From Oligoflexales bacterium (GTDB taxonomy: Bacteria; Bdellovibrionota_B; Oligoflexia; Oligoflexales; Bog-1112): DNA of 39,656 nt. Below, piece after piece: positions 8,724 to 36,597 of this stretch; positions within the stretch are counted from its first letter, which is position 1; each line of letters starts with the position of its first letter. The stretch covers positions 1 through 39,656 of the forward strand of contig JBGCDR010000146.1 in assembly GCA_045105515.1 (NCBI GenBank). The letters run 5' to 3'. The position numbers were made by a program, and so were the translations under genes. The notes under the pieces are model-generated. The model made no database searches. It was not told the DNA's origin and saw only the letters and a list, made by a program, of their open reading frames with translations.

Positions 8724-8931
8724 TTCCAAGCCTCCTTGCTTATGTGTTTACTTTTGAAAACATTTGACCACAAGTTAACCCTCATTTCAACATAGGTGTA
8801 CAGGGACGGGATTTACATATGTTTAAAATTAATTTTATTTTCGATATTTCGTTATTAAATTAAAACCGTTCTTCAATCAGGTATATTTTTTTTTGGTACA
8901 GAAGAAGGAGGGTAATTTGATAAGCAAGAAA

Positions 8932-10116: not shown

Positions 10117-10125
10117 GTTCGACCT

Positions 10126-10977: not shown

Positions 10978-10992
10978 CGCGTATCTCCTTTC

Positions 10993-12075: not shown

Positions 12076-12335
12076 TTCTAATCCTATATTTGATGAATTT
12101 TATGTCTGGAAATCATAGTTCACATTACGAGCTATTTTTGAAGTATAGTCTAAAAGTTTATCGGTAACTTCATCGTCCATACTTTATACCACACGTAAAC
12201 AAATCGTCAATCAATTAATAATTTTAATAACTTAGTATTAATTGGGCGATCGATTGTTACCATTAAATATATAAATATTTATAATGAAATTATAGATAAG
12301 ATAGCAGTCACAATCTAAAAAATAAATTTTTGCAC

Positions 12336-12362
12336 TTAAGTAAAAAAAATTGTTGTCGATAT
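12336..12362 (+). promoter_or_regulatory. Candidate sigma28 promoter for the Hpt/RR unit
   Basis: TTAA-N15-GTCGATAT, about 40 bp upstream of 12405. Confidence 0.5.
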
Positions 12363-12404
12363 CATAATTGTAGAATAGGCGTTTACACAGAGTATTAAAA
12401 AATC

Positions 12405-12785
12405 ATGAGTCATAATTCGAAAAATATCGGTATCGACAAAGAACAATTTCACAAGAAATTACTTGAGGAATTTAAAGGGGATGAAGAAATACTTTGTAAA
12501 ATGATTGGAATATATCACAAAAAATCAGGTCAATATCTAAGCTCTCTCGAAGAGTCAATCACTAAAAACGAAGCTGTAGAAATTGTTCACTCCTCTCATT
12601 TATTCAAGGGTGCAATTGGAAACTTCACAGTCGATAGTCCCTTTAAAATATTAAGAAAAATTGAATACCTAGCAAAGAATAAGGATCTAGAGGCAATTCC
12701 TCAACTCCTAGAAGAACTAAAACCTCAGCTTGTGGAATTAAATTCTGCACTTACTGACTTAAAAACAAATCTATCTAAACTTTAA
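12405..12785 (+). CDS. Stand-alone Hpt phosphotransfer protein
   Basis: SHLFKGAIGNF (H-x-x-K-G motif), helical 126 aa. Confidence 0.88.
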   Translation: MSHNSKNIGIDKEQFHKKLLEEFKGDEEILCKMIGIYHKKSGQYLSSLEESITKNEAVEIVHSSHLFKGAIGNFTVDSPFKILRKIEYLAKNKDLEAIPQLLEELKPQLVELNSALTDLKTNLSKL

Positions 12786-12796
12786 CAGAGATTGGT

Positions 12797-13447
12797 ATGT
12801 CCATACTTATTGTAGAAGACGATGAAATTACAGCTACGCGATTAGCAGAGCAACTCGAGAAAAGAGAATATGAGACTACTGTCTTGGAAGATGGTGAATC
12901 CTGTCTTGAACTCATAAAAACTCAACCTCCCACACTAATCCTACTGGACTATATGCTACCAGGAATTTCTGGCCTAGAGGTACTTAGCGAGGTTAGAAAG
13001 CTATATAGCATGGTTGAACTACCTATCATTCTTGCTACGGCAAAAAATGATCCTGCAGAAGTCGTAAAAGCTTTAAAACTTGGAGCAAATGACTATATAA
13101 CAAAACCAATAAATATTGAGATTCTCACCGCTAGAATAAGAACTCAAATAGGGCTAAACCAATATTACATAGAAAGTTTAAGGAATAATGAGCTAGAAAC
13201 TCTAAATGCGATGATTGTAACTTATAATCATGAAATCAACACTCCTCTTACTAGCGCAATGCATAATATGGAAATCCTCCAAGAAATAGGAGAAAAAAAT
13301 CAAAAACATCTTGAAGATGCTCTTTCAAATCTTCAAAAAATAACATCAATATTAAATAAAATCAGGAAAGTTACCAAGAACCCAATTACAAAAAAATCTT
13401 ATATTGGCAAAACTAAAATGATTAATATTGACAAAAAAACCCAGTAA
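12797..13447 (+). CDS. Response regulator fused to a HisKA (DHp) domain without an ATPase domain
   Basis: REC (VEDD, LLDYMLP, ATA, KP) followed by H-box NHEINTPL; protein ends at 216 aa with no N/G boxes. Confidence 0.88.
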   Translation: MSILIVEDDEITATRLAEQLEKREYETTVLEDGESCLELIKTQPPTLILLDYMLPGISGLEVLSEVRKLYSMVELPIILATAKNDPAEVVKALKLGANDYITKPINIEILTARIRTQIGLNQYYIESLRNNELETLNAMIVTYNHEINTPLTSAMHNMEILQEIGEKNQKHLEDALSNLQKITSILNKIRKVTKNPITKKSYIGKTKMINIDKKTQ

Positions 13448-13514
13448 GTTCAGTTGTTATCCAATTTCACAATTCATACCACTTTTAAATATTTAATATT
13501 ATTATTAAGTGATC

Positions 13515-13541
13515 TAATTAATTTCTTATAACGGACGAATA
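13515..13541 (+). promoter_or_regulatory. Candidate sigma28 promoter for the globin gene
   Basis: TAAT-N15-GACGAATA, about 45 bp upstream of 13585. Confidence 0.35.
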
Positions 13542-13584
13542 GTTATGTGACTGCCTGCGACTGCGCATTTTATGGAGGAAAGAC

Positions 13585-14364
13585 ATGAGTGGCCTTGATG
13601 TAAAAAAAATACGTGATTCTTTTGATATTATTAAACCCATTGCTGCAAATGTAGCAGACAAGTTTTATGAAATCCTTTTCACTGACTTTCCATCTTCAAG
13701 AAACTTATTTCAAGGTGTAGACCTTGAAATGCAACAAAAAGCTCTAATCAACTCATTAGCCTATGTAGTAGAACACCTTGAAGACTCTACTAAATTGAAA
13801 AAATATCTAAATGACTTAGGAAATAGACATTTGAAATACGGAACCGAAGAAATTCATTTTGAGTGGGTTGGATGTTCTCTACTAAAAACCTTAAATTTTT
13901 TCTTTGCTGAAAAATGGACTGACGCTTTAGAAAGAGAGTGGGTTAATGCATTTTTAATTATCTCAAACTTCATGAAAGAAGGAATGAAACCTACATCTGA
14001 AGCCACAGATCATATCGACAACCAAACTCCCGAAACTGAGGAAAAATTAGAGTCGATCGACGATAACAGTTATGACGAAATATCAAATAATTCAAATGAA
14101 GACAGTGATGATGTCACTAGAATCAATCAGGTTGCTGATGAAAATGACGAATCATTGCTGGAAGATTCAAGCAATGTTGTTCATATTGGTGAGAATAAAA
14201 GCGTTCAAATTCCTTTAGAATTACAAAATAAAATCAAAGATTTAGTAAAATCCTCAATTGACCACTACATTGAGGAAGAAATCATAAAAGCTCTCAATGA
14301 AAAGATCAATATAATTAGTGAAGAAGATGTTTCGGTCCACCTTAAAAAAATTGTCAATGGCTAG
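13585..14364 (+). CDS. Globin-domain protein (flavohemoglobin-type globin, no reductase) with acidic linker and helical tail
   Basis: FYEILF (B10 Tyr), P...LF (CD1 Phe), QQKAL (E7 Gln), LGNRHLKYG (F8 His), WT..LEREW; GGAGG RBS. Confidence 0.88.
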   Translation: MSGLDVKKIRDSFDIIKPIAANVADKFYEILFTDFPSSRNLFQGVDLEMQQKALINSLAYVVEHLEDSTKLKKYLNDLGNRHLKYGTEEIHFEWVGCSLLKTLNFFFAEKWTDALEREWVNAFLIISNFMKEGMKPTSEATDHIDNQTPETEEKLESIDDNSYDEISNNSNEDSDDVTRINQVADENDESLLEDSSNVVHIGENKSVQIPLELQNKIKDLVKSSIDHYIEEEIIKALNEKINIISEEDVSVHLKKIVNG

Positions 14365-14447
14365 AATTTAGCTTTTAGAAAAAATAAAATCATATAATCA
14401 CATAATAACTAAAATTAATAGCTGAGGGTGCAAAAGGAGGATAAAGC

Positions 14448-14792
14448 TTGATAATCCTGGTAGTAGAAGATGATCCTTCATTTAATGAAGCCCTTTGTTC
14501 TTCATTGACTAATTGGGGTCATGATGTTCACTCTGCAATTGATGGTGAAGCCGCCTTAAGACTCATAAATCTTCACAAATTTGAAATGGTTTTTTCTGAT
14601 TTATCAATACCAAAACTAGATGGATTAAAACTTCTAGAAAAATTCAGAGAGTTTGATACAATCACTCCTTTTTATATCATCACAGGATATAACGATAGAA
14701 TCGATGAGCTAAACCTAGATGAAAACACAAAAATCTTAAACAAGCCATTTAGGTTAAAAGAATTCAGAAGTATAGTAGAAGCCTATCAGTAA
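14448..14792 (+). CDS. Single-domain response regulator
   Basis: VEDD, FSDLSIP, ITG, KPF; GGAGG RBS with TTG start. Confidence 0.9.
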   Translation: MIILVVEDDPSFNEALCSSLTNWGHDVHSAIDGEAALRLINLHKFEMVFSDLSIPKLDGLKLLEKFREFDTITPFYIITGYNDRIDELNLDENTKILNKPFRLKEFRSIVEAYQ

Positions 14793-14799
14793 TCTGAAA

Positions 14800-17373
14800 T
14801 CAGGCTACTTTTGAAGGCTTCTTAACTTTTTTAGATTTGAGCCTATTGATATATTCCTTTAAAATTACAGCAATATCTACAATAGTCACCAAACCATGTT
14901 GACTGTGATTAAAATTCCCTAGAAAACCATCAATTCTAGTAATATTTTTCTTTATTTTACCAGAGTAGTTATATGTACCCACCACTTCAGTGGTGGGTAT
15001 TCCAATAAAATGATGATCTTGTTTAAAGACCATCATATCAAAACTCTTTCCATATTGTTTATCAATTTTTTTATCAGCTAAATCCATGAGTTCATATAGA
15101 TCGAGCACATTCAAAACTTTCCCACTGTAATATATCTGCTTAAAATTCCCAATATTCTCAACTTCCTTTTGATTAAATCTTTCAAATCTAAAAATATCAT
15201 CTAATAGAATGGCAAACTTATGCTTATAACCGATATCAAAGAGTAAATAACAAACTTCTTCAAAAGCGTGGTTTTCATTATTATTAACGTCTACTTTGAT
15301 CCCATCTGATCTTGTCTCATTAGAACTGAAAACATTTCCAATCTGGTTAACATTTAAAACCAAACCTATTGTTCCATCCCCCATAAAGGTCGCACCTTTA
15401 AAGAAATTTCTTTTATTGACTATTGGGAGTATTTTATTGATTACGGACTCCTCAGATCCAACTATATCATCCACTAAAATTGAATAAAGAACACTCTTTT
15501 CTTGAAGAAACAGTATGTATTTTCCCAAAATATCATCATTAAGGGTCAATTCACGATCTAGGCGGCTAAATAAAGCCTCTACGTCTATAATTGGCAGAAG
15601 TTTATCAAATACCGCAATAAACAATCGGTTATTCATTACCCATATTTGATCCTTACAAAGCCCTAAAAGCTTTATGCCAAATATCAAATTTTGGTCGATC
15701 GCATAGAAACTATTGCTAATTTCGACTACAAGAGAACTTATTATAGACACAGATTTGGGTTTGGGAATGCTAACTAGAAAATCTGTACCTTTACCCTCTG
15801 TGCTATTTACTAAAATTCGACCATTATATTTTTCGATTGAAGCCTTGACCATATCTAGTCCAACTCCTCGGCCAGATATCTCTGATACTTTCTCTGCAGT
15901 ACTCAGCCCTGAATTAAAAATAAGACCATAAATATCCGATTCATCCATACGCTTAATATCTTCTTGATTAATCAAGCCGTTCTTAAGAGCTTTATCCAGT
16001 ATTTTATCCTTAGCAATCCCTTTTCCATCATCCGAAATTTTCAAAGATATTGACGACTCGGTTTCATCTACCTCAAGATTTACAGATCCATCTTTTGGCT
16101 TATTGAGTTCTAATCGCTGTTCTGGGGACTCAATACCATGATCAATTGCATTACGAACCAAATGAACAAGGGAATTTGTCAAGACCTCGGATATTGCAGG
16201 ATCTAATCTCACATTATTATCAGCGATCTCAGTTTTAATAGGTTTGTTCAATTTAAAAGCAACGTCACGTATGATTCGTTTTACTTTTTTGAAGATCCTA
16301 TTTACAGGAATCTTTCGAAGATCAACTATTTGATTTTGAATACTACTATTTATCTTATTCATTTCATCAAGCAAAATCACCAGATTATATATCTTTTTTT
16401 CTCGCGGAAAATCTTTAAGAATAGCTTGCGCAAGTTTATCTAGCATATTTTTAAGCATGGTGATTTTACTACTCTGTAGTAAAAATTTTTCCAATAACTC
16501 AACACTAACCTGAACAGTTCCATCCTTTTTAACCTTACTATCAATTGCAGCAGGATCTTCCGTATCAACTTTTTTTGTCCATTTAGTATATTTTTTCGTT
16601 TCCATCATATCATTAATGGCATCTATTTTCTCTTCGAATATCTTATAAAGTTCAGAAGGAGCTTTACCTTGCTTGAGTTCATCAATGAACTTAAAAGCGA
16701 AGTCACAGCAACTAAATAACAACTGGCAAGTTGACTCATCTACCTGATAATGATTAGATTTTAGAAAATCTAGATAATTCTCGGCTTTATGAAGATAGTT
16801 TGTGAAATGCGGTCTTTCGAGGATACCACTGCTACCCTTTAGTGTATGAACAAATCTAAATAGCCCTACTAAAAATTCTTCACTAAATTCTTGATTATAG
16901 TCAGCAAATGTATTTTCGATATCTTCGTAAATATTTTCAGATTCTTCGAAAAAAGACTTGGAAAGAGATTTTTTTTCGTCAAGATCTTCTTTTCTTGGTT
17001 TGATTACATATTCGAAAACTTCATCTATTTCATCTTTTGATACAGGCTTTCCAACAAAACCTGAAAGATCGTTCTTCATCATTTTATTAGCATCTTCAAG
17101 CGAAATAAATCCTGATGCTAATATAATTGGAACATTTTTATATAATTTAATTACGTTTTTTGCTAGTTCGATACCATTAATTTTAGGCATATTATAGTCA
17201 GAAACTATACACAATAGAGAGTCTATATTTTCTTCTACTAGATCTAAAAGAAAATCAGGGTCAGTTATCGATTTAAATTCACAGTTATAACTTTCAAACT
17301 GCTTTTTCATAAGATTTAAAAAGTTTTTGTCATCGTCTATTCCGATAACTACACCCAATGAATCTTCAGCCAT
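14800..17373 (-). CDS. cheA: Complete CheA with N-terminal REC (REC-Hpt-P3-P4-CheW-CheW)
   Basis: REC (IDDD, SDYNMP, KP), Hpt HTLKGS, HLVRNAIDHGIE, DDGKG, SGRGVGLDMV, two CheW-like domains. Confidence 0.92.
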   Translation of the reverse strand: MAEDSLGVVIGIDDDKNFLNLMKKQFESYNCEFKSITDPDFLLDLVEENIDSLLCIVSDYNMPKINGIELAKNVIKLYKNVPIILASGFISLEDANKMMKNDLSGFVGKPVSKDEIDEVFEYVIKPRKEDLDEKKSLSKSFFEESENIYEDIENTFADYNQEFSEEFLVGLFRFVHTLKGSSGILERPHFTNYLHKAENYLDFLKSNHYQVDESTCQLLFSCCDFAFKFIDELKQGKAPSELYKIFEEKIDAINDMMETKKYTKWTKKVDTEDPAAIDSKVKKDGTVQVSVELLEKFLLQSSKITMLKNMLDKLAQAILKDFPREKKIYNLVILLDEMNKINSSIQNQIVDLRKIPVNRIFKKVKRIIRDVAFKLNKPIKTEIADNNVRLDPAISEVLTNSLVHLVRNAIDHGIESPEQRLELNKPKDGSVNLEVDETESSISLKISDDGKGIAKDKILDKALKNGLINQEDIKRMDESDIYGLIFNSGLSTAEKVSEISGRGVGLDMVKASIEKYNGRILVNSTEGKGTDFLVSIPKPKSVSIISSLVVEISNSFYAIDQNLIFGIKLLGLCKDQIWVMNNRLFIAVFDKLLPIIDVEALFSRLDRELTLNDDILGKYILFLQEKSVLYSILVDDIVGSEESVINKILPIVNKRNFFKGATFMGDGTIGLVLNVNQIGNVFSSNETRSDGIKVDVNNNENHAFEEVCYLLFDIGYKHKFAILLDDIFRFERFNQKEVENIGNFKQIYYSGKVLNVLDLYELMDLADKKIDKQYGKSFDMMVFKQDHHFIGIPTTEVVGTYNYSGKIKKNITRIDGFLGNFNHSQHGLVTIVDIAVILKEYINRLKSKKVKKPSKVA

Positions 17374-17402
17374 AAACCACCATTTTGATCAAGGAAACTA
17401 TT

Positions 17403-18248
17403 TTAACTTGCTTTTTTACTGTTAACTTTTTGATGGATTACAGATCCACCGACTTTTTTCACTTCGAACTGATCACTTAATCCAATCATACTTTCAGTAC
17501 CACCTAACACTAGGTAACCATCTCCAATAAGATGCTCACAAAATCTTGAAACTATTGATCTTTTATTTTTACTACTTTGATAAATAAGAACATTTCTACA
17601 TAAAATTAGGTCAAAACTTCCAACATGTCCCCAAGGTTCAATAAGATTCATTTGTTTAAAAACTATCGATTTTTTAAGATAGGGTTTAACACGCCAATTT
17701 GGAAATTTTCCCTCTGAGTCTTGCTCAAAGTGCGTTAGTAACATTGGTGCACTCAAACCTCTTTGCACCTGAAGTTGAGTATAAACGCCTTCTGAAGCAT
17801 GCTTCAAAACTCGATCTGAATAATCAGTTGCCATCATATAGTATTTAAAATTATAACCTTTTTTTTCTAAATCATACAAAATCATCGCCAAGGTATAGGG
17901 TTCTTGTCCAGTACTACACGCTGCACTCCAAATATTAAGATAACTTTTTCCTGCTTTCAAATATTCCTCAAGCACGGATTTTATGGCGTTGAAGACGCCG
18001 ATATCGCGAAAAAATTTGGTTTCATTATTAGTTGCTGTATCAAGAAGCATATTTTCGAGAGTCCGATCGCCTTGAAGTTCAGCTTGTTTATATTGGCGAT
18101 AAAACTCGTCTACCGATTCAATTTTTAATTGTTTACAGATATCTTCTAATCTAGAAGAAAGCTGATAATAGTTTTCCTTAATGTAAACAATTCCAATCTT
18201 ATTTTTTATCAATTCAGAAAAATATTCTAAATGTTTTTCATTAGTCAT
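17403..18248 (-). CDS. cheR: Chemotaxis methyltransferase CheR
   Basis: TNNETKFFRD, IWSAACSTGQEPY, FDLILCRNVLIY, GGTES. Confidence 0.96.
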   Translation of the reverse strand: MTNEKHLEYFSELIKNKIGIVYIKENYYQLSSRLEDICKQLKIESVDEFYRQYKQAELQGDRTLENMLLDTATNNETKFFRDIGVFNAIKSVLEEYLKAGKSYLNIWSAACSTGQEPYTLAMILYDLEKKGYNFKYYMMATDYSDRVLKHASEGVYTQLQVQRGLSAPMLLTHFEQDSEGKFPNWRVKPYLKKSIVFKQMNLIEPWGHVGSFDLILCRNVLIYQSSKNKRSIVSRFCEHLIGDGYLVLGGTESMIGLSDQFEVKKVGGSVIHQKVNSKKAS

Positions 18249-18250
18249 AA

Positions 18251-18622
18251 CTATTTATCCAAACTAATATAATTGTTCAACTTCTCTACTAAAATATCAT
18301 CCGTAAAAGGTTTCATAATATAGTCATTAGCTCCAAGATTTAAGGCCATTTGGATGTCTTCCATTTTATTTTTTGATGTGATTTTAATTATTGGAACTTC
18401 TTGGTTGACACCCCTAATCGCTTTAATGGTTTCTGGACCGTCCATAATAGGCATTTCCCAGTCCAGCAGGACAATATCAAAATGTTTTTTTTGAATATCA
18501 ATAAACTCAAGAGCATCTTTACCTGAAAATGCCGAAGTGAAGTTTATTTGATTATACTCATCTAATGATCCTTTGATAAAATTATGGACTGATTTTGAGT
18601 CATCAACAATTAGAATTTCCAT
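18251..18622 (-). CDS. cheY: CheY-like response regulator
   Basis: IVDDS, LLDWEMP, GANDYIMKPF; inside the che operon. Confidence 0.88.
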   Translation of the reverse strand: MEILIVDDSKSVHNFIKGSLDEYNQINFTSAFSGKDALEFIDIQKKHFDIVLLDWEMPIMDGPETIKAIRGVNQEVPIIKITSKNKMEDIQMALNLGANDYIMKPFTDDILVEKLNNYISLDK

Positions 18623-18634
18623 ATTTAGTCCTTA

Positions 18635-19513
18635 CTAATTTTTTTTCTTTTGATTCAATAATTCATCAATACATTCATCTATGACTTCTTGCTTCGGGGC
18701 CATTTTTGAAATTTCTGATCCTGATGCTACTAAGTTTTCCCTTAGTTCCCAGCTAAGCACCAATCCTTTTTTTATTTGAACACTTGCTGTTGCTGCTAGC
18801 CTTGATATATCTTCATTGCCGTTTTCACTCTTTTCAATAATTCTATTTATATAATCGATTATGGCACCTAGAATTTTGATAGATTGGGTCGCTTCAATAA
18901 ATTCTGCACTTGAGTACACCTCAAATAATAATGATTTTATCTCCTCATATTCTTTATTAAGATTTTGGCATATTGATACACTTCCTGATCCAACCCCATC
19001 TAATAATGCTTCAATTTGATTGAATTTTTCTTGGTTGAAGAAATTTTCATACAATGACACGAATTTGGAAATGTCATTTACTTCAGGTTCGGCAGATGAG
19101 TTTGGGGAGCTTCCCTTAATCTCCATAACTTGGTTCTTATCATCATTAAAAAATCGATCGAATATATCGATTAACTTTTCCCAGCTTACATATTTTTTGG
19201 AAATTATAATCTCAGACAGTGTCTTATTCTTCTCTTCAACTACTTTTAAAATTTCATTTTCAAATTTTTCATTCCATATATTTAGAGATTTGCAAGCACC
19301 AATATAATTTGTTGAGTTTTCTGATAGAAATTTGAAAACTTCTAGTTGCTGATCAATATCCAGCAATTTATTATCATAAACAACTCTTGAGAGATGCGGT
19401 ATTGATTCTACTTTTTCTACCATACACTCTAAAAGATTATCTTTGGAAAGGAGATTATCCTTAAGCAACAGTTTACCTATATACTTCACAACTCCTCCTG
19501 GATTAACATCCAA
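18635..19513 (-). CDS. Hypothetical che-operon protein: N-terminal MshEN-like repeats plus Hpt-like helix bundle lacking His
   Basis: YIGKLLLKDNLLSKDNLLEC and TLSEIIISKKYVSWEKL resemble MshEN xLGxxLxxxGxIxxxxL. LFEVYSSAEFI sits where an Hpt has HxLKGxA. Tightly packed in the operon. Confidence 0.55.
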   Translation of the reverse strand: MDVNPGGVVKYIGKLLLKDNLLSKDNLLECMVEKVESIPHLSRVVYDNKLLDIDQQLEVFKFLSENSTNYIGACKSLNIWNEKFENEILKVVEEKNKTLSEIIISKKYVSWEKLIDIFDRFFNDDKNQVMEIKGSSPNSSAEPEVNDISKFVSLYENFFNQEKFNQIEALLDGVGSGSVSICQNLNKEYEEIKSLLFEVYSSAEFIEATQSIKILGAIIDYINRIIEKSENGNEDISRLAATASVQIKKGLVLSWELRENLVASGSEISKMAPKQEVIDECIDELLNQKKKN

Positions 19514-19514
19514 C

Positions 19515-22160: not shown

Positions 22161-22173
22161 CAGGCTCTACACT

Positions 22174-23718: not shown

Positions 23719-24830
23719 TTTTTCTCCCCATAATGGCTATAGCTAAGAATAAGTTCTCGGCAATTCGATAAAGATTTCACTGCATCATAGGCATTTTCTT
23801 CATATACTGCCCCTGGCATACCCCAAACTGTAGATGAATCCTCATCTTGGATAACAATTCCACCACCACCATTTTTTATTGCAATCGCACCATCGCAACC
23901 ATCACTTCCCATTCCCGTGAGTACAAACCCCATTAAATAGTTTTTGTAAATCTGAGAACTACTTTCAAATGTGTAGTCAGCTGCCGGAATAACAAAGTTT
24001 CTTCGAGCTTCTTGGTTTAGACTGATTTTACACTTTTCACTTTCAGAAACTACGTTCATATGATAGCCACCCGGAGCCAAATAAACCATTCCTGGTTCTA
24101 CTAAATCTCCATCCGATGCTTCGACAACATTATTCTCTGTAACTCGATCTAGCCTATTTGCCAGCTGTGAGGTAAACATTGGTGGCATATGCTGAGCGAT
24201 AAATATGGGAAAAGAAAACTTTGGTAGACCATCAAACAACTCTTCTAAAGCAGCTGGTCCACCTGTAGAACAGGCGATGACTATGGCCTTAGGTTTAAAT
24301 ATATCAAGCTTGACCTTAACCCAGGAAGACTCATCTTTTTTTACCTTATGTTCCGAGGTATCTGCATTATAGCGGTAACGAGGTGCTTTTCCCTTGGCTA
24401 TAGTAGGTGAGGGATCTGCAGGGGCTCGTTTTTTAATAAACTGCATTAATTTTGGCACTAATTCAGAGGCAACCTGATCACGAACTTCTTCCATAGAACC
24501 GCTTGAACCTGCAGGCTTTAAGGCAAAATCATCTGCCCCTAATTCTAAGGCATTCAGGGCATGACTTGCTCCACTCATGCTATTGGAAGTGAATACGACA
24601 ATCTTAGGGCGGATATCAAGTTTTTTAATTTCTTTGATCGTGGATTCACCATCTAATACCGGCATTTCTAAGTCTATGATCATTAAATCGATATCATAAT
24701 GGTCAAGTTTTTTGAGCGCAATCTTTCCATTAGACGCTGAAGAAACTACCTGGAATTCAGGTAGTTCTTCCAGCACCTCAGAGATTTTCCGGCGAAACAC
24801 TACAGAATCGTCAACAATGAGTACTTTCAT
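23715..24830 (-). CDS. cheB: Chemotaxis methylesterase CheB (REC plus esterase)
   Basis: IVDDS, IDLEMP, CSTGGP, QHMP, LTGMGSDG, QDEDSSTVWGMP. Confidence 0.97.
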   Translation of the reverse strand: MKVLIVDDSVVFRRKISEVLEELPEFQVVSSASNGKIALKKLDHYDIDLMIIDLEMPVLDGESTIKEIKKLDIRPKIVVFTSNSMSGASHALNALELGADDFALKPAGSSGSMEEVRDQVASELVPKLMQFIKKRAPADPSPTIAKGKAPRYRYNADTSEHKVKKDESSWVKVKLDIFKPKAIVIACSTGGPAALEELFDGLPKFSFPIFIAQHMPPMFTSQLANRLDRVTENNVVEASDGDLVEPGMVYLAPGGYHMNVVSESEKCKISLNQEARRNFVIPAADYTFESSSQIYKNYLMGFVLTGMGSDGCDGAIAIKNGGGGIVIQDEDSSTVWGMPGAVYEENAYDAVKSLSNCRELILSYSHYGEKK

Positions 24831-24859
24831 AATTTTATCTTTCCCAAGTTCCTACTCGC

Positions 24860-26788
24860 TCAAAGATCCATATTCTTGACTAAGGTATTTAGCTGTTCAG
24901 CAAGGCTACTTAGTGAACGACTCGCTTCTAATATTTGGTTTGCTCCAGAGCTGGTTTCAGATGCAGCCTTAGAAACATTTTTAATGTTGTCCGCAATAGC
25001 TTGAACACCCTTGTTAGATTCATCAACAACTCTGGTTACTTCCAGAGAGGTAGCAGCTTGTTCTTCAATCGAAGCAGCAATTGAACCAGAAATATCGTTA
25101 AGTTTTTTAATACTTTCGCTAATAGCACCTATTGCGGTGACTGTTTGCTCAGTATCACTTTGGATCGCTCCTATTTTTGAAGTAATTTCCTCGGTAGCAG
25201 TTGCTGTTTGCTTGGCTAATTCTTTAACCTCATTGGCTACGACTGCAAATCCTCTTCCTGCATCACCAGCTCTTGCGGCTTCAATAGTAGCATTTAACGC
25301 AAGAAGGTTAGTTTGCTGAGCAATCGAGCTGATAACCTTAATAACCTTACCTATTTGATTGCTACTTTCCCCAAGCTTCATGATCTTAACATTGGTTTCA
25401 TCAGCTTGGGATTTGGTTGCATTCGACATTTTTGATGCCTGAGAAGAATTATTAGAAATTTCTTTAATTGCAGCTTGCATTTCTTCCATGTTTGTAGCTA
25501 CAGCATCAAAACCTTTTGACACTTCCTCTGAAGCGGATGCCGCGTTGGTAGACTGAGCAGAGGTTTCTTCAGAATTTGCTGTCATTTGCGTAGAGGTAGC
25601 ATTCATTTCTTCGGCTGCCGCAGACAATGAACTTGCTGCTTCTTTAATATTAGAAACGAGAGCAATTTTTTCAGTAATCACTTCCCAAGTAACCATTGCT
25701 CCTAAATACTCTTGATTTGCGTCATAGGTGGCATTTACCCTTAGCTGCAGGGTATCTTGCCCAACCTTTATCCTTGCGGTATGAGGTAGATTACGCGGAT
25801 CTGAGAGAATTTTTCTTTGAACATCTGGGTTTTTGTGGAATATATCTATTTTTTCACCAATCAACTTGTCAACTGGCTTTGGTAATTCTCGTTCTATGGT
25901 TTTTAAGGTTTCGTAAGATGCTGGATTCATAAACACTAGATTGTAATCTAAATCTGCCATCAATATATTAATTGGTGCATTTTCAATCATTGACTGAATT
26001 CTAGCTAGCTCGTTTTCTTTTTCTAATTTTTCAGTAATGATTTCCCAGGTCACCATCGGGCCTATGTATTTATTGTCTTTGTCGTAAACTGCCGAAACAA
26101 GTAAATCCAACTTTTCTGGGCCTACACCGATTTCAGCACGATGGGGAAGGTTTCTATCATCTCTTACTATGCTTCTTTGAATTTCTGGCTTGCGATGAAA
26201 GATATCTATTTTTTCTCCAAGTAGCTGATCAACAGGCCTTGGGAGATATTTCTCTAAAGTTTTCAGAGTCTCACGAGAAGCAGGATTCATATAGACAAGG
26301 GTAAAATCCGTATCAGCAAGCAAGATATTTATAGGGGCGTTTTCTAACATGGAGTTATAACGTGCTGCTTGATTATCAACTTTGACTTTCTCAGTAATGA
26401 TTTCCCAAGTTAACATCGGGCCCACGTAATCGCCTACTTTGTTGTAAATAGGAGAAATCAATAAATCTAAGATTTCATCTCCCAGCTCAATTTTAGCTCG
26501 ATGCGGCAAGTTCCGCGGATCTTTTAGCAGATTTCGCTGATGTGAAGGATTTTTATGAAACACATCAATGCTTGATCCAATTACTTTGTCAGCTGGAATA
26601 GGTAAGACCTTTTCAAGTTTACGTAAGGTATTGTAGCTAGATTCATTTAAATACTTAATCTCAAAATTAAGATCACAATACATGATGTTAATAGGTGAAC
26701 TGTCATTAAAAGCACGAAACTCTTCAGATGAAATCTCCGAATCCTCGCTTTGAAGTAACCTTGCTGCATTTGAAGCCATAACAATCAC
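24860..26788 (-). CDS. Soluble methyl-accepting chemoreceptor with three Aer2-type PAS domains
   Basis: Three repeats with IDxFHxxP and TWE[IV]IT; no TM segment; signalling hairpin [37 protein letters not shown]. Confidence 0.93.
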
Positions 26789-26791
26789 CCT

Positions 26792-27289
26792 TTATTTTAG
26801 TTCATTTAAATAATTAACTATTTTCTGTAAATCGATGATACTGAGTAGTGAAGAATTATTAACCTTGTAAACTCCCACCATAAATCTCTTGATAGAGTTA
26901 GGGATCGTTTGAGGAGTCTGCTCAAAGTCACTTGCTTCAACACTAAATACATCACCAATCTCATCAACTAATAAAGACACCAAATTATCCTCGTACTGAC
27001 AGACCACATTCATATATTCTGAATTTTCACTAGTGCCTGTTTGTGAGCTTATCCCAAGCAATTCACGCATTCCAATTGCCGTAGTCACTTGCCCTCTAAG
27101 GTTTATGAGTCCTTTGATACATTCCGGCACCAAAGGGATCTTAGTAAGAGGCATAGGCTTTACAATTTCCTGCACTTGAGTAACTTCAATCCCATAGATC
27201 TGATCCGCAACATAAAAAGTCGAATATTGAGTGCTATGAGTTGATTGAGTATTTTGAGCAGCCCGGCTATTTTGTACTTCTTGAGTCAT
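26792..27289 (-). CDS. cheW: Coupling protein CheW
   Basis: VQEIV, GLINLRGQV, LLVDEIGDV; GAGG RBS favours ATG 27289 (track start 27316). Confidence 0.95.
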   Translation of the reverse strand: MTQEVQNSRAAQNTQSTHSTQYSTFYVADQIYGIEVTQVQEIVKPMPLTKIPLVPECIKGLINLRGQVTTAIGMRELLGISSQTGTSENSEYMNVVCQYEDNLVSLLVDEIGDVFSVEASDFEQTPQTIPNSIKRFMVGVYKVNNSSLLSIIDLQKIVNYLNELK

Positions 27290-27305
27290 CTTGATCCTCT
27301 TTTCA

Positions 27306-29435
27306 TTAAGCAGCACTTTTTTGTTTATCTAAGTGCTTAAGCATTGAATTTAACAATACTGATTCATCAAACTTTTTTAAAAAATCTGAGAACCCAAGTT
27401 CTTTCCCTCTTTGAATTAGGTCGTCAGTATAGCGGCTCGTCATAGCAACTACCGGAATATTGCCCCATTTTTCACTGTTACGAATGTTTTCAAGAAGCTC
27501 AAATCCATCCATTTCCGGCATTTCAATATCGGTTATTACAAAATCTACGTCCTTGTTCGATGCATTAGCCAAATATTGGTGGGCTAATCTACCATTTTTT
27601 TCGGAATGAACATTGAACCCAAAATTTTTCAGAGTCCTTTGAATATGATTTCTATAAGAATTACTGTCCTCAACAAGAAGGATACTAAGATTCTTTGGTA
27701 AGAGCATTAGAACTTCGGCATTGGGATCACTAGAATCTAATCCAATGAATTCGCTTATGATCGAATATACATCGATGCAGACAATGATTTGCTCTTTATA
27801 GATTACATTCCCAACAATTCCTACAGATTGAGTCAAGCCTTCTTCTGTCTCACCTCTAATCTCAATAACATCAAGAATACTATCCACAAGTATGCCAAAA
27901 AACTGATTACAATGTTTAACTACTGCAACTGAATGCTTAGCCGATTTTTTTTCGCTTTTATTTATATCATTGAAATCTACATAATCTAAAACTGAGATAA
28001 GAGGCAATATATCATCACCATAGTTGACCACAAGATTATCCCCACAATATTCTAGGTCATCTTCATCAAATTCCTCCAATCTGTGGACAAATCCCAATGG
28101 AATTGCGTATCTACCAGGAACGTTAAGATCAACTAGTAGATATTCCTCGACTGTTTCATTGAGCTTTAAACTTAGGTCTTCTACCTGATTATTGATAAAT
28201 TTTTGAGATTGTTCTGAAAAGATATCTTCTCCCTCTGCTAAGCCAACTGCATCAAGTACGAGAGCAACCGATCCGTCCCCCATGATTGTGGCTCCTGAAT
28301 AAACCGAGGCATTTTTGAGAAAACTACTTAGTGGCTTCACAACGATATCTGTGGAATCAACAATGGTATCTACCACCAAGCCAAAGGAACAGTTATTTGC
28401 TGTGAGTACAGCTATATTTTTCGTATGAATTGGGTTTTCCTTTGGACACAGTCCAAGGGCATGTTCAAGAGAAATCAGCGATAATATGCTGCCTCTGAGC
28501 CTATAAATTGGCTTTCCACCAAGCCATTCTATCATTTCTCCATGTTCATTATCTTCAACCATTACTAGCTCTTGAATTTTTACCTGTGGAATTGCATATT
28601 TTTCGTTTTTTACTTGTACAATGACTGCTGGAACTATTGCCAAAGTAAGAGGTATCTTCAATAGTATCGCTGACCCATGCCCTTCCTGACTATCTAGCTC
28701 TATGGTGCCATTGATCTGCTCGATGTTAGTTTTAACAACGTCCATTCCAACGCCCCTGCCAGATATACTTGACACCTTTGCAGCTGTTGAAAATCCTGGA
28801 TTAAATATTAAATTAAAAATTTGTTTTCGGGTCATATTTTGTATTTCATCATTGCTAACTAGACCCTTACTCACTGCCTTGTTAGCGATTAATTTTTCAT
28901 CTAGGCCCTTTCCGTCATCAATCACTTGCACAACTACCTGACCACCTTCGTGGAAGGCTTTAATACTAATATTTCCTTTCTCGTTTTTACCTTTTTTCAC
29001 CCTTACATCAGGGTTTTCTATACCATGATCAACCGCGTTTCTTACAATATGAATCAAAGGGTCTTTTATACCTTCAATTAAAGTCTTGTCTAGCTCTGTT
29101 TCCGCACCTTGAATTGATAAATCAATCTCTTTTTTTAGATCACGAGATAAATCTCTAACAATCCTACTTAATTTCGAGAGGATATTACCAATAGGCTGCA
29201 TCCTAGTTTTCATAACATCATTTTGTAATTCATTGGTAACAGCATTAAGATTTTGCCCAAGAGCTACCACTTTATCGTCAGATTTCCTCTGCGAGGAAAC
29301 TTGCGTGAATTGATTTCTAATCAGAACCAACTCGCCGATAAAGTTCATCAAATTGTCAAGCAAGCCAACCTGAACCCTTATGGTATCTGAGGAACCATCA
29401 AAACTACCAGTCTTGCCTAATTTTTTATTATCCAT
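27306..29435 (-). CDS. cheA: CheA lacking the Hpt/P1 domain (P3-P4-CheW-CheW-REC)
   Basis: Starts about 15 aa before DTIRVQVGLLDNLMN; intact HIVRNAVDHGIE, DDGKG, FNPGFST, SGRGVGMDVVK; C-terminal REC (VEDS, TDIEMP); in-frame TAG two codons upstream of the ATG. Confidence 0.92.
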   Translation of the reverse strand: MDNKKLGKTGSFDGSSDTIRVQVGLLDNLMNFIGELVLIRNQFTQVSSQRKSDDKVVALGQNLNAVTNELQNDVMKTRMQPIGNILSKLSRIVRDLSRDLKKEIDLSIQGAETELDKTLIEGIKDPLIHIVRNAVDHGIENPDVRVKKGKNEKGNISIKAFHEGGQVVVQVIDDGKGLDEKLIANKAVSKGLVSNDEIQNMTRKQIFNLIFNPGFSTAAKVSSISGRGVGMDVVKTNIEQINGTIELDSQEGHGSAILLKIPLTLAIVPAVIVQVKNEKYAIPQVKIQELVMVEDNEHGEMIEWLGGKPIYRLRGSILSLISLEHALGLCPKENPIHTKNIAVLTANNCSFGLVVDTIVDSTDIVVKPLSSFLKNASVYSGATIMGDGSVALVLDAVGLAEGEDIFSEQSQKFINNQVEDLSLKLNETVEEYLLVDLNVPGRYAIPLGFVHRLEEFDEDDLEYCGDNLVVNYGDDILPLISVLDYVDFNDINKSEKKSAKHSVAVVKHCNQFFGILVDSILDVIEIRGETEEGLTQSVGIVGNVIYKEQIIVCIDVYSIISEFIGLDSSDPNAEVLMLLPKNLSILLVEDSNSYRNHIQRTLKNFGFNVHSEKNGRLAHQYLANASNKDVDFVITDIEMPEMDGFELLENIRNSEKWGNIPVVAMTSRYTDDLIQRGKELGFSDFLKKFDESVLLNSMLKHLDKQKSAA

Positions 29436-29478
29436 AAGCTACTAGTTCCTACGAACCTTTACAAAGGTTATGGCCGGC

Positions 29479-29505
29479 TTATCGGAAGTAAAAAATAAAA
29501 GGTTA
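29479..29505 (-). promoter_or_regulatory. Sigma28 (FliA)-like promoter for the che operon
   Basis: Minus strand TAAC-N15-TCCGATAA, 43 bp upstream of the P1-less cheA start. Confidence 0.6.
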
Positions 29506-29628
29506 AGAGATAGAGCGAAGATCCCTTAACAAACTCAGCGAAATGAGATTTTCTTAAAAAACAGCAGAACGATTCAATTATAAATATTCAAATTGCTGCA
29601 ATATTAAAAAAATACAAGCATCATCTAT

Positions 29629-30702
29629 CTATTTCTGATTAACTATTTTATAGGTTATATTTTGAATTTTCTTAAGATTTGCTAAGACATCTTCCTCTAG
29701 TTTTGAACTATGATAGTCAGTTTTGATCATCTTTGATGACCAATGCGCAAGTTTTATGTATGTATTAAAATTCAGTTCTGCTAACCTTCGAATGCTGAAT
29801 TGGGTTTCATAGTTTTTCAATGCTTTCTGTAATTCGAAGATTAGCAGGTCTTTTTTAAAAGGTTTTGGCAAAAATGCAAATGCTCCTAAATTAATGAATT
29901 CTTTTAGGTCTTCCATCTCAGCATACCCTGAATAGAAAATTACTGGCATCATTAGTTCTCTCTTACGTAATTCCCGAATAAAATCTAAACCATTCATCTC
30001 TGGCATTTTAAGATCAGTAATTATAGCCGAGATCGCTGTATCTGAATTATCAATTTCTTCTAGCGCAAGTCTGCCATTCATGGCTTTTAAAACTCTTACT
30101 CCGAGCGCCTTCTCGATTGAAGTAGACAACACCGTTAGGAGGCTAGCTTCATCATCACAGATAAGGATAGTAGTTTCTTTTAAGCTTTGCCTAACATCAA
30201 AATATTGAGAACTAGCTGGTTTGGGATCTTTAGACTTTGGTTTTTTAGCAGTCATACTAAAAACACCGTATTTCTCCATAATTTCAGACTTATTTGCGGC
30301 AATATTTTCTTTTCCAATAAGTTCACTAATCTTTTCTTGGAAGTCAGAAGTATCCAGAGTAAACCCATAATTTTCCAATAAGCCTTCAACAAAAGTCGCC
30401 AGCATGTCGTTAGCATCCAACAACAAATCAATAATTTCTTTGGAAATCTGAATTTCGCCAGCCCCGATTTTACTTAGTAAAGATTCGAAGTCATGAGCAA
30501 AATCGCTAAGCTGCTGAAAACCAGCTGCAGATCCTGAACCTTTAATGGTATGGGCGAGGCGAAAAATTTGATCTATGGTTTTATTATTATTTTCAGGATT
30601 TTGCTCTAATCCCAGAAATAGTTGCTCGCATTCCTCAAGCATTTCTTTGGCTTCTTCCAAAAAATCTTGCTTTAAAACATCAATTTCATAATCAATTTTC
30701 AT
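29629..30702 (-). CDS. CheA-P1-like Hpt fused to a REC domain
   Basis: FLEEAKEML, IFRLAHTIKGSG, AHDFESLL; REC ICDDE, ITDLKMP, YSG, KPF. Confidence 0.92.
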   Translation of the reverse strand: MKIDYEIDVLKQDFLEEAKEMLEECEQLFLGLEQNPENNNKTIDQIFRLAHTIKGSGSAAGFQQLSDFAHDFESLLSKIGAGEIQISKEIIDLLLDANDMLATFVEGLLENYGFTLDTSDFQEKISELIGKENIAANKSEIMEKYGVFSMTAKKPKSKDPKPASSQYFDVRQSLKETTILICDDEASLLTVLSTSIEKALGVRVLKAMNGRLALEEIDNSDTAISAIITDLKMPEMNGLDFIRELRKRELMMPVIFYSGYAEMEDLKEFINLGAFAFLPKPFKKDLLIFELQKALKNYETQFSIRRLAELNFNTYIKLAHWSSKMIKTDYHSSKLEEDVLANLKKIQNITYKIVNQK

Positions 30703-30714
30703 GTCATTCCTAAA

Positions 30715-31479
30715 CTACTGTTTGGTAACACCTATTTGCCCAACAAAACTGTTTAATATCGGTCTTTTTCTTGGCCCAAAGTAGTCAATATAGTCTTGCG
30801 TCCAATGATTCCATCGCCGCGATTCATCCTGGCGAATATCATAATATTTACGGAGAACTATGTCATATGCACCAATGACTTCAGGATCGAAGCTTGCTTT
30901 GCATGTTCCTTGCCAAAGCGGATCAGCAAGCCTTGTAGGCTCAAAAGGGTCGATGAATATTTTTAAACTATTTATTCCTTGTGCACGCTCGTCAATAACT
31001 TTTGACTCAAATAAAAAATCTACGCGGTCACGATATCGCCGATTAGTTTTACACTTCCTTCCAAGGCTAATCGTTATTATTTCTTTTTGTTCAAGACCAT
31101 CATCATAGTCCTGAACAAACATAAATCCCATTAACTCTGAGTCATTAATGATACTTAAAAAACTGTCTAGCTCCTTTGGGCCCGTCAATTTAACCGATTT
31201 TTGAACTATTTTTTTCATAGTATCAATTAGATCTACGTCATGATTGGGACGTAGATAAAATGATTCAAAAGTATTGACATGGATTTTATTTTGTGGCCTT
31301 GACCATCCAATCTTTTTCTTCTGCCTATAATTTTCAAATTTATTCATGAGGTATTTAAGAATATTGCTTGATTTTTTCTTTTCAGATAAAGCAAGATAAA
31401 TTTCACTATATTCTTGGCTATTTAAAACCTCACTTTGATCTCCGCATGGTTTATCCTGTGTCTTCTTACTAATGTGCAC
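30715..31479 (-). CDS. Hypothetical protein, first gene of the Hpt-REC unit
   Basis: 254-aa ORF, AAGGA RBS with GTG start, 12-bp gap to the Hpt-REC gene; no recognised motif. Confidence 0.7.
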   Translation of the reverse strand: MHISKKTQDKPCGDQSEVLNSQEYSEIYLALSEKKKSSNILKYLMNKFENYRQKKKIGWSRPQNKIHVNTFESFYLRPNHDVDLIDTMKKIVQKSVKLTGPKELDSFLSIINDSELMGFMFVQDYDDGLEQKEIITISLGRKCKTNRRYRDRVDFLFESKVIDERAQGINSLKIFIDPFEPTRLADPLWQGTCKASFDPEVIGAYDIVLRKYYDIRQDESRRWNHWTQDYIDYFGPRKRPILNSFVGQIGVTKQ

Positions 31480-31887
31480 AGTGATTTTTCCTTTATACCT
31501 GGCATATAGAAAACATCTTTATCACATTATCTTCGGAAATATTGTCAGTCTAATAAATAGCAATTTCTTCCTAGTATGCCAAAAATCCACTCTCATAGAA
31601 GTGATTACAAGTAGTTCTAATGGATATGGAAAAAATTCCAACTCACAGAAAACCATAAGAAATGAGAAATCATTACCTAAGAATCAGTTGAACACGCCTA
31701 GTTTATATATTTCAAAAAGGAAAAGGGCATACAATGAGTTTTAGATTTACTTATAATTTGAAACAATAGAATTAGAAGACCCATCGGGCCATTTTAATAA
31801 TCACGTGATGAGCTAGTCTTATTTGAACAACTTTTAGGTGGTTTAAACTGAGATTTAATGCGATTATAAACCAGGGAGGTCACCTTT

Positions 31888-32223
31888 ATGAACGATCAAA
31901 AATTTCTATTCAAATTAATTGTATTGATGGGAATCTATTCATGTACAACCCCCTCAAGAATAACTAAACCGACTGAAGCTCTGAATAATAACCCTAATCT
32001 TAAGACTTACGAATCACAATTCAACTCCGATCCCACCCTACATGCAAACTACAGTCCCTTACGTATATCGAACAAGACTTGCCGAGAAAATCAAGCTTAT
32101 ATTTTGAAACAGGTACCTGCTAAACAAATTGAATTCGGAATCTATCAAAGTTTTTCTCTAAATAAGCTATCTTTCAATAAAAGTGGATTTTTTACCGGGT
32201 ATCGGTGCACCCCTCAGCAATAA
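31888..32223 (+). CDS. Small putative lipoprotein
   Basis: GGAGG RBS; signal MNDQKFLFKLIVLMGIYSC with lipobox Cys. Confidence 0.6.
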   Translation: MNDQKFLFKLIVLMGIYSCTTPSRITKPTEALNNNPNLKTYESQFNSDPTLHANYSPLRISNKTCRENQAYILKQVPAKQIEFGIYQSFSLNKLSFNKSGFFTGYRCTPQQ

Positions 32224-32316
32224 ATTATAATATTTTTAGAATTTCTTGCGATAAGCATAGAAATGATAGTTATCTCGTTAATCCCCTTAAGAGTTTCCAA
32301 AAGGAGGACAGGTATA

Positions 32317-34176: not shown

Positions 34177-34323
34177 GATTCTGTGGTACCATTTACTCCT
34201 TATTTTAATAGACCATTAATATCTATTTTTTGTTAAGATAGAGCTTCATATTCGTTGCATATTAAACTGCTTGTTAATAGCTTGCTTCTAATGGAAATAA
34301 AATTTTTAATAGAAGAGGTAAAG

Positions 34324-35283: not shown

Positions 35284-35414
35284 AATTAGTTAGGGGAATC
35301 TTTTGATTATACATAACTACGTATAATCGATGTGTTTTTAATAGAAATTCTCCTGGCCTACTAATCTAATGCCAGTTTTATCCGAATTCAGTAAGGGGGG
35401 TCCTGATTAAATTC

Positions 35415-36584: not shown

Positions 36585-36597
36585 AATAGAGCTCAAG

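Follow-up and report, generated by a model that had tools for sequence, protein, structure and literature searches.

A predicted kinase/pseudokinase pair of CheA proteins in a widespread F5-type chemosensory cluster of the Bdellovibrionota

In Rhodobacter (Cereibacter) sphaeroides, the work of one chemotaxis kinase is divided between two proteins, CheA4 phosphorylating the P1 domain of CheA3; an older count set 11 split CheAs against 470 complete ones (PMC3591291). A history of duplication and then decay has been proposed for the pair, and orthologues are reported from 20 Rhodobacteraceae genomes. The same survey, which covers 13,673 CheA proteins, calls the Rhodobacter kinase/pseudokinase pair unique and states one CheA per system (PMC10782961). 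Here, a locus is described that appears to hold a second such pair. It lies in a contig of 39,656 nucleotides from an Oligoflexales bacterium (JBGCDR010000146.1, the whole of which is called the window below; it is contig C146 of a 6.29-Mb genome in 461 contigs, 90.9% complete, with 4.8% contamination). Judged from the genes and their relatives, the split CheA is real, conserved and probably convergent, and it sits inside a chemosensory cluster of the F5 type that is apparently undescribed but widespread.

Other parts of the locus have described relatives as well. The F5 class is marked by a CheA with two CheW domains (PMC10782961), the gene order AW...BR (PMC10746217) and a receptor of 38 heptads (PMC6759762). 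Aer2 receptors sense oxygen through PAS domains defined by a heme-binding Eeta-His and an Ibeta-Trp that serves O2, and their core consists of PAS, di-HAMP and a kinase-control domain (PMC10107281). The Cc-5 cluster of Corallococcus coralloides, described in silico only, has the order cheA-cheW-MCP(PAS+globin)-ABC1-ABM-cheB-cheR (PMC6194562). A preliminary description of the present locus knew of no described system with its combination. The parts have precedents: the split CheA in R. sphaeroides, the tri-PAS-heme Aer2 in Vibrio vulnificus, and ABC1 in the PAS/globin cluster of C. coralloides. Full-text searches, mostly of non-subscription journals, brought up no paper on this cluster of the Bdellovibrionota and none on another kinase/pseudokinase pair of CheAs; such proteins may be listed in the supplementary tables of PMC10782961.

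Two CheA genes with complementary losses

The kinase partner, called CheA-K here, has no P1 domain and keeps its catalytic motifs. The other, CheA-P, belongs to the same operon; it keeps His49 of P1, and the N, F and G2 boxes of its P4 domain are lost in all four CheA-P sequences (coordinates in Table 1). Over 571 residues, CheA-K and CheA-P share 40.8% identity.

A frameshift as the cause of the missing P1, or an Hpt-REC/cheA-K fusion, is ruled out. CheA-K starts 15 residues before P3, in-frame stops stand directly upstream of its ATG, and the best 120 of 581 matches include homologues of 708-710 residues that likewise have no Hpt (85, 77, 73 and 54% identity).

In CheA-P, the N box HxxRNAxDH has become QLAKIAVLT, with Ile448 in place of its Asn. 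The PGFST segment is changed and shortened, and the G2 box SGRGVGMD has become CGPDCRLD, leaving the DDGxG of G1 as the sole remaining P4 motif. The ATP pocket is thus predicted to be destroyed: a GHKL domain deprived of its Mg-binding Asn and its lid glycines should be unable to use ATP. Such losses stand apart among 202 CheAs scored at 16 positions of the P4 motifs, where 184 deviate at none, 12 at one, one at two and one at four; CheA-P and its three homologues deviate at nine or ten. These homologues, with the same losses, are 68-78% identical to CheA-P. When residues 325-600 were the query, giving 51 matches among 2948 candidates, the three stood at 78-82%, all sharing the box losses, and the next at no more than 42%.

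Conservation is uneven along the pseudokinase. The four CheA-P proteins average 85% identity in P1 and 87% in P3; the value is 83% for the stretch between N box and G1, 53% for the lid, 83% and 71% for the two P5 domains, and 38% for the linker. Four CheA-K proteins average 88% in P3, 88% in P4 and 84% in the ATP lid. (Three ABC1 proteins are 58% identical.) The body of the dead P4 keeps fixed replacement residues of its own among the homologues, and P1 bears the motif of the relatives' whole CheAs, YRxMHTIKGxSQLxG, with His49 included. A lid that varies in CheA-P and is kept in CheA-K, beside a well-kept P1, P3 and P4 body, argues that constraint has been relaxed on the ATP lid only. CheA-P is, by these signs, a maintained pseudokinase.

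A short G-F-G-x-F motif, standing twice in the CheA-P linker (about 21276-21476), recurs in the P2-less linkers of related CheAs and Hpt-REC proteins (fetched loci L025, L043, L044, L108 and L113). It is possibly a docking motif for response regulators.

The two genes appear to share an origin. The CheA-P and CheA-K clades are sisters with support of 96/99 (IQ-TREE, LG+G4, 39 rows), and they remain joined when P4 is left out (SH-aLRT 99 in an LG+C20 tree of 36 rows). The pair nests among whole two-P5 CheAs of the Bdellovibrionota, which argues for an origin independent of Rhodobacter, whose sequences lie outside these trees; the nearest whole CheA is not singled out by them. The simplest history would be that the main CheA gene of an F5-type system, whole at first, was duplicated, that the copies lost complementary parts, and that one copy landed between the ABC1 gene and the gene for a 292-residue protein. 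Motif checks, homologues and tree together pin the distributed kinase function of the preliminary description to this duplicated, complementary pair.

Both forms recur in three further metagenomic lineages. In two ENA lineages, equal sizes of the longest contig place the partner homologues together indirectly (size 73071 for P0006, P0057 and the ABC1 protein P0002; size 84447 for P0008 and P0058, with no ABC1 match of that size). Two Logan contigs add to this, one of size 11751 pairing ABC1 (P0003) with CheA-P (P0007), the other of size 10921 pairing the 254-residue protein of the cluster (P0176) with CheA-K (P0059). When 95 genomes of the order, the present one included, were searched with the CheA core at E<=1e-50, 41 matched, that is, 40 of the 94 others; no identity above 43% was found outside the genome itself, and no pseudokinase copy was found in the 94. 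A scan of JGI metagenomes with the four-sequence CheA-P alignment confirmed 0 of 595 candidate stretches. The order cheB-ABC1-pseudo-cheA, offered earlier as a thing to look for in neighbourhoods, occurs in no fetched locus and is implied for close relatives by shared contig sizes alone.

Proposed phosphotransfer between the copies, and its rivals

CheA phosphorylates in trans within its dimer, and in Escherichia coli the short form of CheA rescues a kinase-dead CheA by trans-phosphorylation. Here, CheA-K would bind ATP and phosphorylate His49 on the P1 domain of CheA-P, a reading to which a probability of roughly 0.6 may be given. CheA-P, its own ATP pocket dead, would keep P3, the P4 body and the P5 domains as a scaffold. 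From P1, phosphate would move on to CheY and CheB, and the REC domain of CheA-K, the lone REC, the Hpt-REC protein and the REC-DHp protein would act as sinks or side branches. The signal would start with heme in the PAS domains of the receptor, which would bind O2 and pass a change, without a HAMP domain, into the 38-heptad domain; with CheW and the P5 domains, the receptor would form an array free of the membrane. CheA-R, the third CheA, would be an older, self-sufficient second kinase of the cluster.

How the two halves meet is a separate matter. In a K:P heterodimer, the one working P4 would face the one P1; homodimers, short of using a further Hpt, would be inactive. Both P3 domains are intact, so a heterodimer with one active site is possible. 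Fold prediction points weakly the same way: the P3-P4 heterodimer scored 0.44 against 0.00 for the best of three controls, with runs agreeing in at least 93% of contacts and a local confidence (pLDDT) of 81 for the partner. The mark it passed is reached by 51 of 78 solved complexes and by 2 of 108 mismatches, and scores of 0.60 or below account for only 5 of the 78 solved complexes and for every one of the 4 mismatches, among 180, that passed. Because CheA dimers have been solved (1b3q), the pass may also reflect likeness. An array in which homodimers lie side by side, the arrangement proposed for Rhodobacter (PMC3964821), would serve equally well.

A bolder form of the proposal must count as doubtful. 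Here, the heterodimer would be obligate and linked through P3, with output set by the ratio of the subunits; it would share a membrane-free, HAMP-less O2 array with a third, REC-gated CheA. Coupling of the array to the respiratory state would fall to three dedicated parts: the globin, the COQ8-like ATPase and a protein whose fold is possibly undescribed. Such a dimer, if it exists, would amount to a natural half-kinase, having one active site and one phospho-His.

Several points weigh against phosphotransfer from CheA-K to CheA-P, or against the history behind it. Only four lineages carry the pair; that its genes lie together in the close relatives, and in what order genes stand there, is deduced from contigs of equal size rather than read from their DNA. 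FastTree, with 82 rows, does not join the two clades; the tree without P4 was a quick search, not a careful one; and the CheA-P stem is long (1.45-1.48). P1 has been lost separately in other two-P5 CheAs of the order (L044, L108, L109; P1 is degenerate in L113), and these P1-less CheAs have no pseudokinase in the fetched loci: in L108 and L109 the neighbour is an Hpt-REC gene, in L044 a REC-first CheA. The window therefore offers CheA-K other possible substrates, too. For P0060, the P1-less relative at 54% identity, no pseudokinase partner was retrieved. Flagellar behaviour is the likely output of the cluster, at odds no better than even; six further CheA genes lie elsewhere in the genome, one of them on the contig with fliM, so a flagellar output is not established.

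The P1-less relatives lend themselves to the strongest rival, by which CheA-K uses the Hpt-REC protein or the small Hpt as its P1, and CheA-P is structural or is phosphorylated mainly by CheA-R. The Hpt-REC gene lies directly upstream of cheA-K, and an Hpt encoded separately in the same operon has already been described (PMC10782961). However, Hpt-REC also accompanies whole CheAs (L035, L043, L049, L057 and L082), so its presence is independent of P1 loss, and here a sigma28-like site separates it from cheA-K. The P1 of CheA-P, moreover, is the ancestral P1 of the main CheA, conserved together with its His. On this evidence the free-standing Hpt is an unlikely substitute.

A second rival makes CheA-P a regulator: a dominant-negative subunit, a phosphate sink or a phosphatase, damping the array through CheY-P or through inactive dimers and replacing a missing phosphatase gene. 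R. sphaeroides CheA3 is, in fact, also a phosphatase of CheY6-P (PMC3591291). The conserved body of the dead P4, with its fixed replacement residues, fits such a role, and the repeated linker motif could dock CheY. The preliminary description found no phosphatase gene at the locus, and the window indeed has no CheX or CheC, nor is there a match to CheZ in the genome, at its 90.9% completeness. However, the gap is local: of nine CheX matches elsewhere in the genome, seven exceed the cut-off, and two related clusters carry CheX. Regulation by CheA-P would also leave unexplained why the sister copy has correspondingly lost its P1, and it is compatible with phosphotransfer from CheA-K to CheA-P. 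As a replacement for that phosphotransfer, it is quite improbable.

That the pair has no function, being a duplicate in decay or an artefact of assembly, as the many contigs, the contamination and the one other genome of the genus without a match to receptor or CheA at the thresholds used might suggest, has scarcely any likelihood left and is largely refuted, since both genes are open throughout, full-length homologues in three other lineages share the losses and show domain-specific constraint, and contigs of three sequencing runs, which may be the source of the window rather than independent of it, span 12000-31900 with zero differing letters or joints, broken only at the linker repeat 21332-21475.

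The cluster, its oxygen input and its accessory genes

Table 1. Genes and promoter-like sites of the cluster, by position in the window
Feature	Positions	Strand	Remarks
Weak sigma28-like site	12336-12362	+	before small Hpt; equalled by 7% of shuffles and 9.8% of random regions
Stand-alone Hpt (H65)	12405-12785	+	Pfam and residue check
REC (D51) with HisKA/DHp (H145, HEINT)	12797-13447	+	PF00512, 33 bits; no ATPase domain; overlooked in the preliminary description
Single-domain globin	13585-14364	+	Y28, F42, Q50/51, proximal H82; acidic linker, conserved C-terminal helix
Single REC (D51)	14448-14792	+	Pfam and residue check
CheA-R	14800-17373	-	857 residues; complete kinase, REC-P1(H176)-(divergent P3)-P4-P5-P5
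CheR	17403-18248	-	Pfam
CheY-like single REC (D54)	18251-18622	-	Pfam and residue check
292-residue protein, MshEN-like helical repeats and His-less Hpt-like bundle	18635-19513	-	conserved Bdellovibrionota protein
CheA-P	19515-22160	-	881 residues; P1(H49)-linker-P3-dead P4-P5-P5; no REC; G1 DDGxG kept
ABC1/UbiB-family protein	22174-23718	-	overlaps cheB stop; COQ8-like
CheB	23715-24830	-	REC D53; S188, H214, D310
Soluble chemoreceptor	24860-26788	-	three Aer2-type PAS, no HAMP, 38-heptad signalling domain, no C-terminal pentapeptide
CheW	26792-27316	-	Pfam
CheA-K	27306-29435	-	709 residues; P3-P4-P5-P5-REC, no P1; N133, G1 D174, F box, G2 box and REC D636 intact
Sigma28-like site	29479-29505	-	about 45-70 bases before cheA-K; beats 200/200 shuffles; 4.4% of 389 random upstream regions score as well
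Hpt(H51)-REC(D230) protein	29629-30702	-	separate conserved gene, not the lost P1 of CheA-K; in 8/33 loci
Uncharacterised 254-residue protein	30715-31479	-	family with conserved Arg/Trp/His/Asp

The inventory drawn up earlier from the letters is borne out by Pfam and residue checks. These find three CheAs of differing architecture, four His-bearing Hpt domains (in the small Hpt, CheA-R, CheA-P and Hpt-REC), seven REC domains with an acceptor Asp in each, CheW, CheR, a CheB with S188, H214 and D310, the globin, the ABC1 protein and two proteins without a Pfam family. The one His-less Hpt-like domain is the C-terminal half of the 292-residue protein, which has no Pfam match; Atlas structure rows align it to Hpt, below the bar for naming. 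A Pfam scan of the 34 open reading frames of the window finds no CheZ, CheC, CheX, CheD or flagellar family, CheC and CheD having been searched in the window only. The two units are convergent. The plus unit (12405-14792) runs Hpt, REC-DHp, globin, REC. The minus unit (31479-14800) runs 254-residue protein, Hpt-REC, a 193-base gap with the sigma28-like site, cheA-K, cheW, receptor, cheB, ABC1, cheA-P, 292-residue protein, cheY, cheR, cheA-R; from cheA-K onward its genes overlap or lie no more than 30 bases apart.

Promoters of the sigma28 type had been suggested for both units. This holds in part: the site before cheA-K clearly outscores shuffles, the one before the small Hpt is weak, and nothing above chance precedes position 31479, the globin or the last REC. 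The score is itself a weak test, finding a good site before only one of seven flagellin genes.

Three marks suggest that the cluster is of the F5 class; MiST class models and curated F5 reference CheAs lie outside this comparison. All three CheAs have two PF01584 stretches, that is, a duplicated CheW (P5) domain. The order is AW...BR: cheA-K, cheW, receptor, cheB and, after four further genes (ABC1, cheA-P, the 292-residue gene and cheY), cheR. The receptor is of the 38H kind, with about 266 residues after the last PAS, of which 259 align to 273 of PDB 6s18, presumably a 40H receptor, at seven fewer per arm.

What had been taken for a new island is, by these marks, of a known class, F5/38H, with a gene set and much of an order conserved across the Bdellovibrionota. 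The receptor, searched at E<=1e-60, matched 27 of 60 sampled relatives. A tally was made over 33 loci chosen by hand, some of them by way of ABC1 and many truncated by contig ends. It counts 18 with the main CheA and 11 with the REC-first CheA (8 with both), 15 with the 292-residue protein, 11 with ABC1, 8 with Hpt-REC, 6 with the globin and 3 with REC-DHp. The main CheA is whole in most relatives, running P1-P3-P4-P5-P5-REC. In one locus, L082, most of the set stands in a single row, namely the second CheA, a whole main CheA, cheW, the tri-PAS receptor, cheB, 292-residue gene, cheY, cheR, ABC1 and Hpt-REC. CheA-R belongs to a separate clade that often accompanies the main CheA; in L032 and L033, this second type alone is seen beside the tri-PAS receptor, cheW, cheB and cheR. 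Named matches of the main CheA include Bdellovibrio, Pseudobdellovibrio and Silvanigrella. The inventory is, by this comparison, that of an F5-type cluster widespread in the Bdellovibrionota, with recurring extras.

The receptor is the only soluble one in view, with a peak hydropathy of 1.0; the 13 further receptors of the genome, each with a hydrophobic segment, reach 2.2-3.0. A cytoplasmic array, as proposed earlier, is therefore plausible. In each of the three PAS domains, the Eeta-His (H78, H198, H318) aligns with the IDVFHK motif of PaAer2, and the Ibeta-Trp for O2 is present (W128, W248, W368). The best PDB matches of the PAS region are PaAer2 (3vol, 4hi4) and 6ceq. Binding of heme and O2 by these domains is what such residues would predict. 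The His pattern of the last PAS was found in 19 of 26 related receptors, and four of the seven misses, when aligned, keep His and Trp.

The di-HAMP of the Aer2 core is absent. No Pfam match to HAMP is found in the receptor, and the last PAS is followed by exactly 267 residues both here and in 25 of the 26 related receptors, the remaining one having 270; this length leaves no room for a HAMP domain. Its match to NF041847, at 335 bits, falls below the cut-off of 1200. The receptor thus presumably works like Aer2 without being an Aer2 by definition. The input varies by lineage, since in some related clusters PAS_3-type or GAF domains replace these PAS domains or stand beside them.

Of the two heme-type inputs proposed earlier, the receptor is supported by its motifs and the globin is not, having no output domain. 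In a globin-coupled sensor one would be fused; here, in the window and in six relatives, the protein is globin, linker and short helix only. It may be an O2 buffer, an NO sink or a modulator bound to the array.

The ABC1 protein keeps its nucleotide-site motifs (K120, E168, D252, N257, D275-F-G and a KxGQ-like KISQ), and its best PDB matches are COQ8A/B (E 2e-47 to 2e-44). It is not the UbiB equivalog, with 93 bits to TIGR01982 against a cut-off of 488. Its relatives with named records are mostly Oligoflexales, Oligoflexia, Bacteriovoracaceae and Pseudobdellovibrionaceae. As a core part of the cluster it is ruled out, occurring in 0 of 20 loci picked by the receptor, though in two further receptor-bearing loci (L021, L025). 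Loci picked by ABC1 adjoin chemosensory genes in 7 of 20 and 5 of 21 cases (a sixth lies near another che cluster), and their other neighbours are unrelated. ABC1 is an accessory part. In L021, L052, L074 and L089, a gene for a PAS-heme-type receptor is directly followed by ABC1, with no further che gene detected nearby.

The 292-residue protein falls in an Atlas cluster of 228 Bdellovibrionota proteins (score 0.95), and the His of its Hpt-like bundle is retained in 4 of 15 orthologues. The MshEN motif consists of two tandem RLGxxLxxxGLIxxxxLxxxLxxQ; here the hydrophobic pattern is present, the Arg, Gly and Gln are not kept, and neither the window protein nor four orthologues have a Pfam match. 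Binding of c-di-GMP is therefore unsupported. A paralogue in the same genome (G000:C169:11046-11999), 66% identical to the N-terminal half, has a His-bearing Hpt before its MshEN-like repeats.

The REC-DHp protein carries an H-E-x-x-T pattern, that of kinase phosphatase activity; it is a candidate phosphotransferase or phosphatase.

The 254-residue protein has 84 relatives among 50%-identity representatives, no Pfam family and only Atlas matches below 0.9. Its alignment-based model is alpha/beta, with a pLDDT of 90.6 (31.5 from the single sequence). The model has no Foldseek match at E<=0.001 and at best a VIA Z of 5.0 (root-mean-square deviation 4.6, 103 residues aligned), values that establish neither a new nor a known fold. 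The family occurs in 7 of 130 other genomes, adjoining cheA in two and lying in unrelated context in five, and its link to the cluster is weak. In L104 (4384-9800) and L105, its gene stands between a two-P5 cheA, a gene for a heme-oxygenase-like iron redox enzyme (PF14518) and a long Hpt fusion.

By profile searches, the genome has flagellar genes: two FliA matches above cut-off, one FliM and eight flagellin-N matches. Two of its other chemosensory loci (C60:70214-72145 and C372:3190-5433) encode CheR-REC-CheB fusions. As regards a possible horizontal arrival of the locus, guanine plus cytosine makes up 32.3% of 12336-23700, 37.3% of 23701-31479, 37.3-37.5% of the flanks and 38.3% of the genome. 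A single transposase stands 9 kb from the cluster (DDE transposase-like, 2846-3511).

On the left flank, a glycine-betaine-type ABC transporter (binding protein, permease and ATPase; 8932-12075, minus strand) adjoins the cluster. Beyond it lie a reading frame of 416 residues with a MAC/perforin domain (PF01823, E 2.4e-7; 7479-8729, minus strand), an aldehyde dehydrogenase (4232-5716) and three reading frames with zero Pfam matches (367-1119, 1355-1777 and 6353-7411). The right flank (32263-39382) holds a GH3 glycosidase, an alpha/beta hydrolase, an MFS transporter, a binding-protein/SLT fusion and a hybrid histidine kinase.

Comparison with known systems

The complementation noted above for E. 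coli is alike in that a His-less, kinase-active subunit and a His-bearing, kinase-dead one make up for each other. There, however, the combination was made in the laboratory from one gene; here, two genes are fixed in a genome.

Among F5 systems, Che1 of Azospirillum brasilense shares with the present cluster a two-CheW CheA with C-terminal REC, the order cheA-cheW...cheB...cheR and a 38-heptad receptor (PMC10782961; PMC10746217; PMC6759762). Unlike Che1, the cluster has its main CheA split, a second clade of CheA with N-terminal REC, and extra genes for Hpt, Hpt-REC, REC-DHp, globin, ABC1 and the MshEN/Hpt-like protein. The Aer2 receptors of V. vulnificus (also tri-PAS), V. cholerae, Pseudomonas aeruginosa and Leptospira interrogans are likewise soluble, with Aer2-type PAS domains, heme His and O2-stabilising Trp. 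The present receptor differs in having no di-HAMP, 38 heptads and no pentapeptide, and in belonging to an F5-type cluster, whereas that of V. vulnificus belongs to an F7 cluster (PMC10107281). Cc-5 of C. coralloides is similar in placing an ABC1 gene within a cluster that has a soluble putative O2 receptor. It differs in its one whole CheA, in the fusion of globin to receptor, and in that ABC1 is reported from no other cluster there and from several Bdellovibrionota clusters here; the two ABC1 proteins are likened without a comparison of orthology (PMC6194562).

The closest likeness is to CheA4/CheA3 of R. sphaeroides. In both cases P1 is absent from one partner, which is P3-P4-P5, and the second combines a His-bearing P1 and a P5 with a kinase domain that is without ATP/Mg residues; in both, the genes share an operon, the receptor is soluble and a duplication is the proposed origin (PMC3591291; PMC10782961; PMC3964821). 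Unlike that pair, the present one would have arisen independently, among the two-P5 CheAs of the Bdellovibrionota. Its kinase copy keeps REC, a third, complete CheA stands in the same unit, and the dead P4 and P3 are readily aligned and strongly conserved rather than detectable only by profile search.

Such a pair would make several things testable: whether split kinases work as heterodimers or as neighbours in an array, why a dead P4 is kept, and whether splitting yields the ultrasensitive response that models predict (PMC3591291). Beyond the pair, the locus draws attention to a cluster, widespread in the Bdellovibrionota, that combines two types of CheA with a HAMP-less PAS-heme receptor. 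According to the survey, arrays with two-P5 CheAs lack structural study (PMC10782961); the orthologous whole CheA is found in the culturable Bdellovibrio and Silvanigrella. Beside the Rhodobacter pair, then, this cluster would represent a second, independent origin of a kinase/pseudokinase CheA, at a stage where both the dead kinase and the dimerisation domain can still be recognised and remain under selection.

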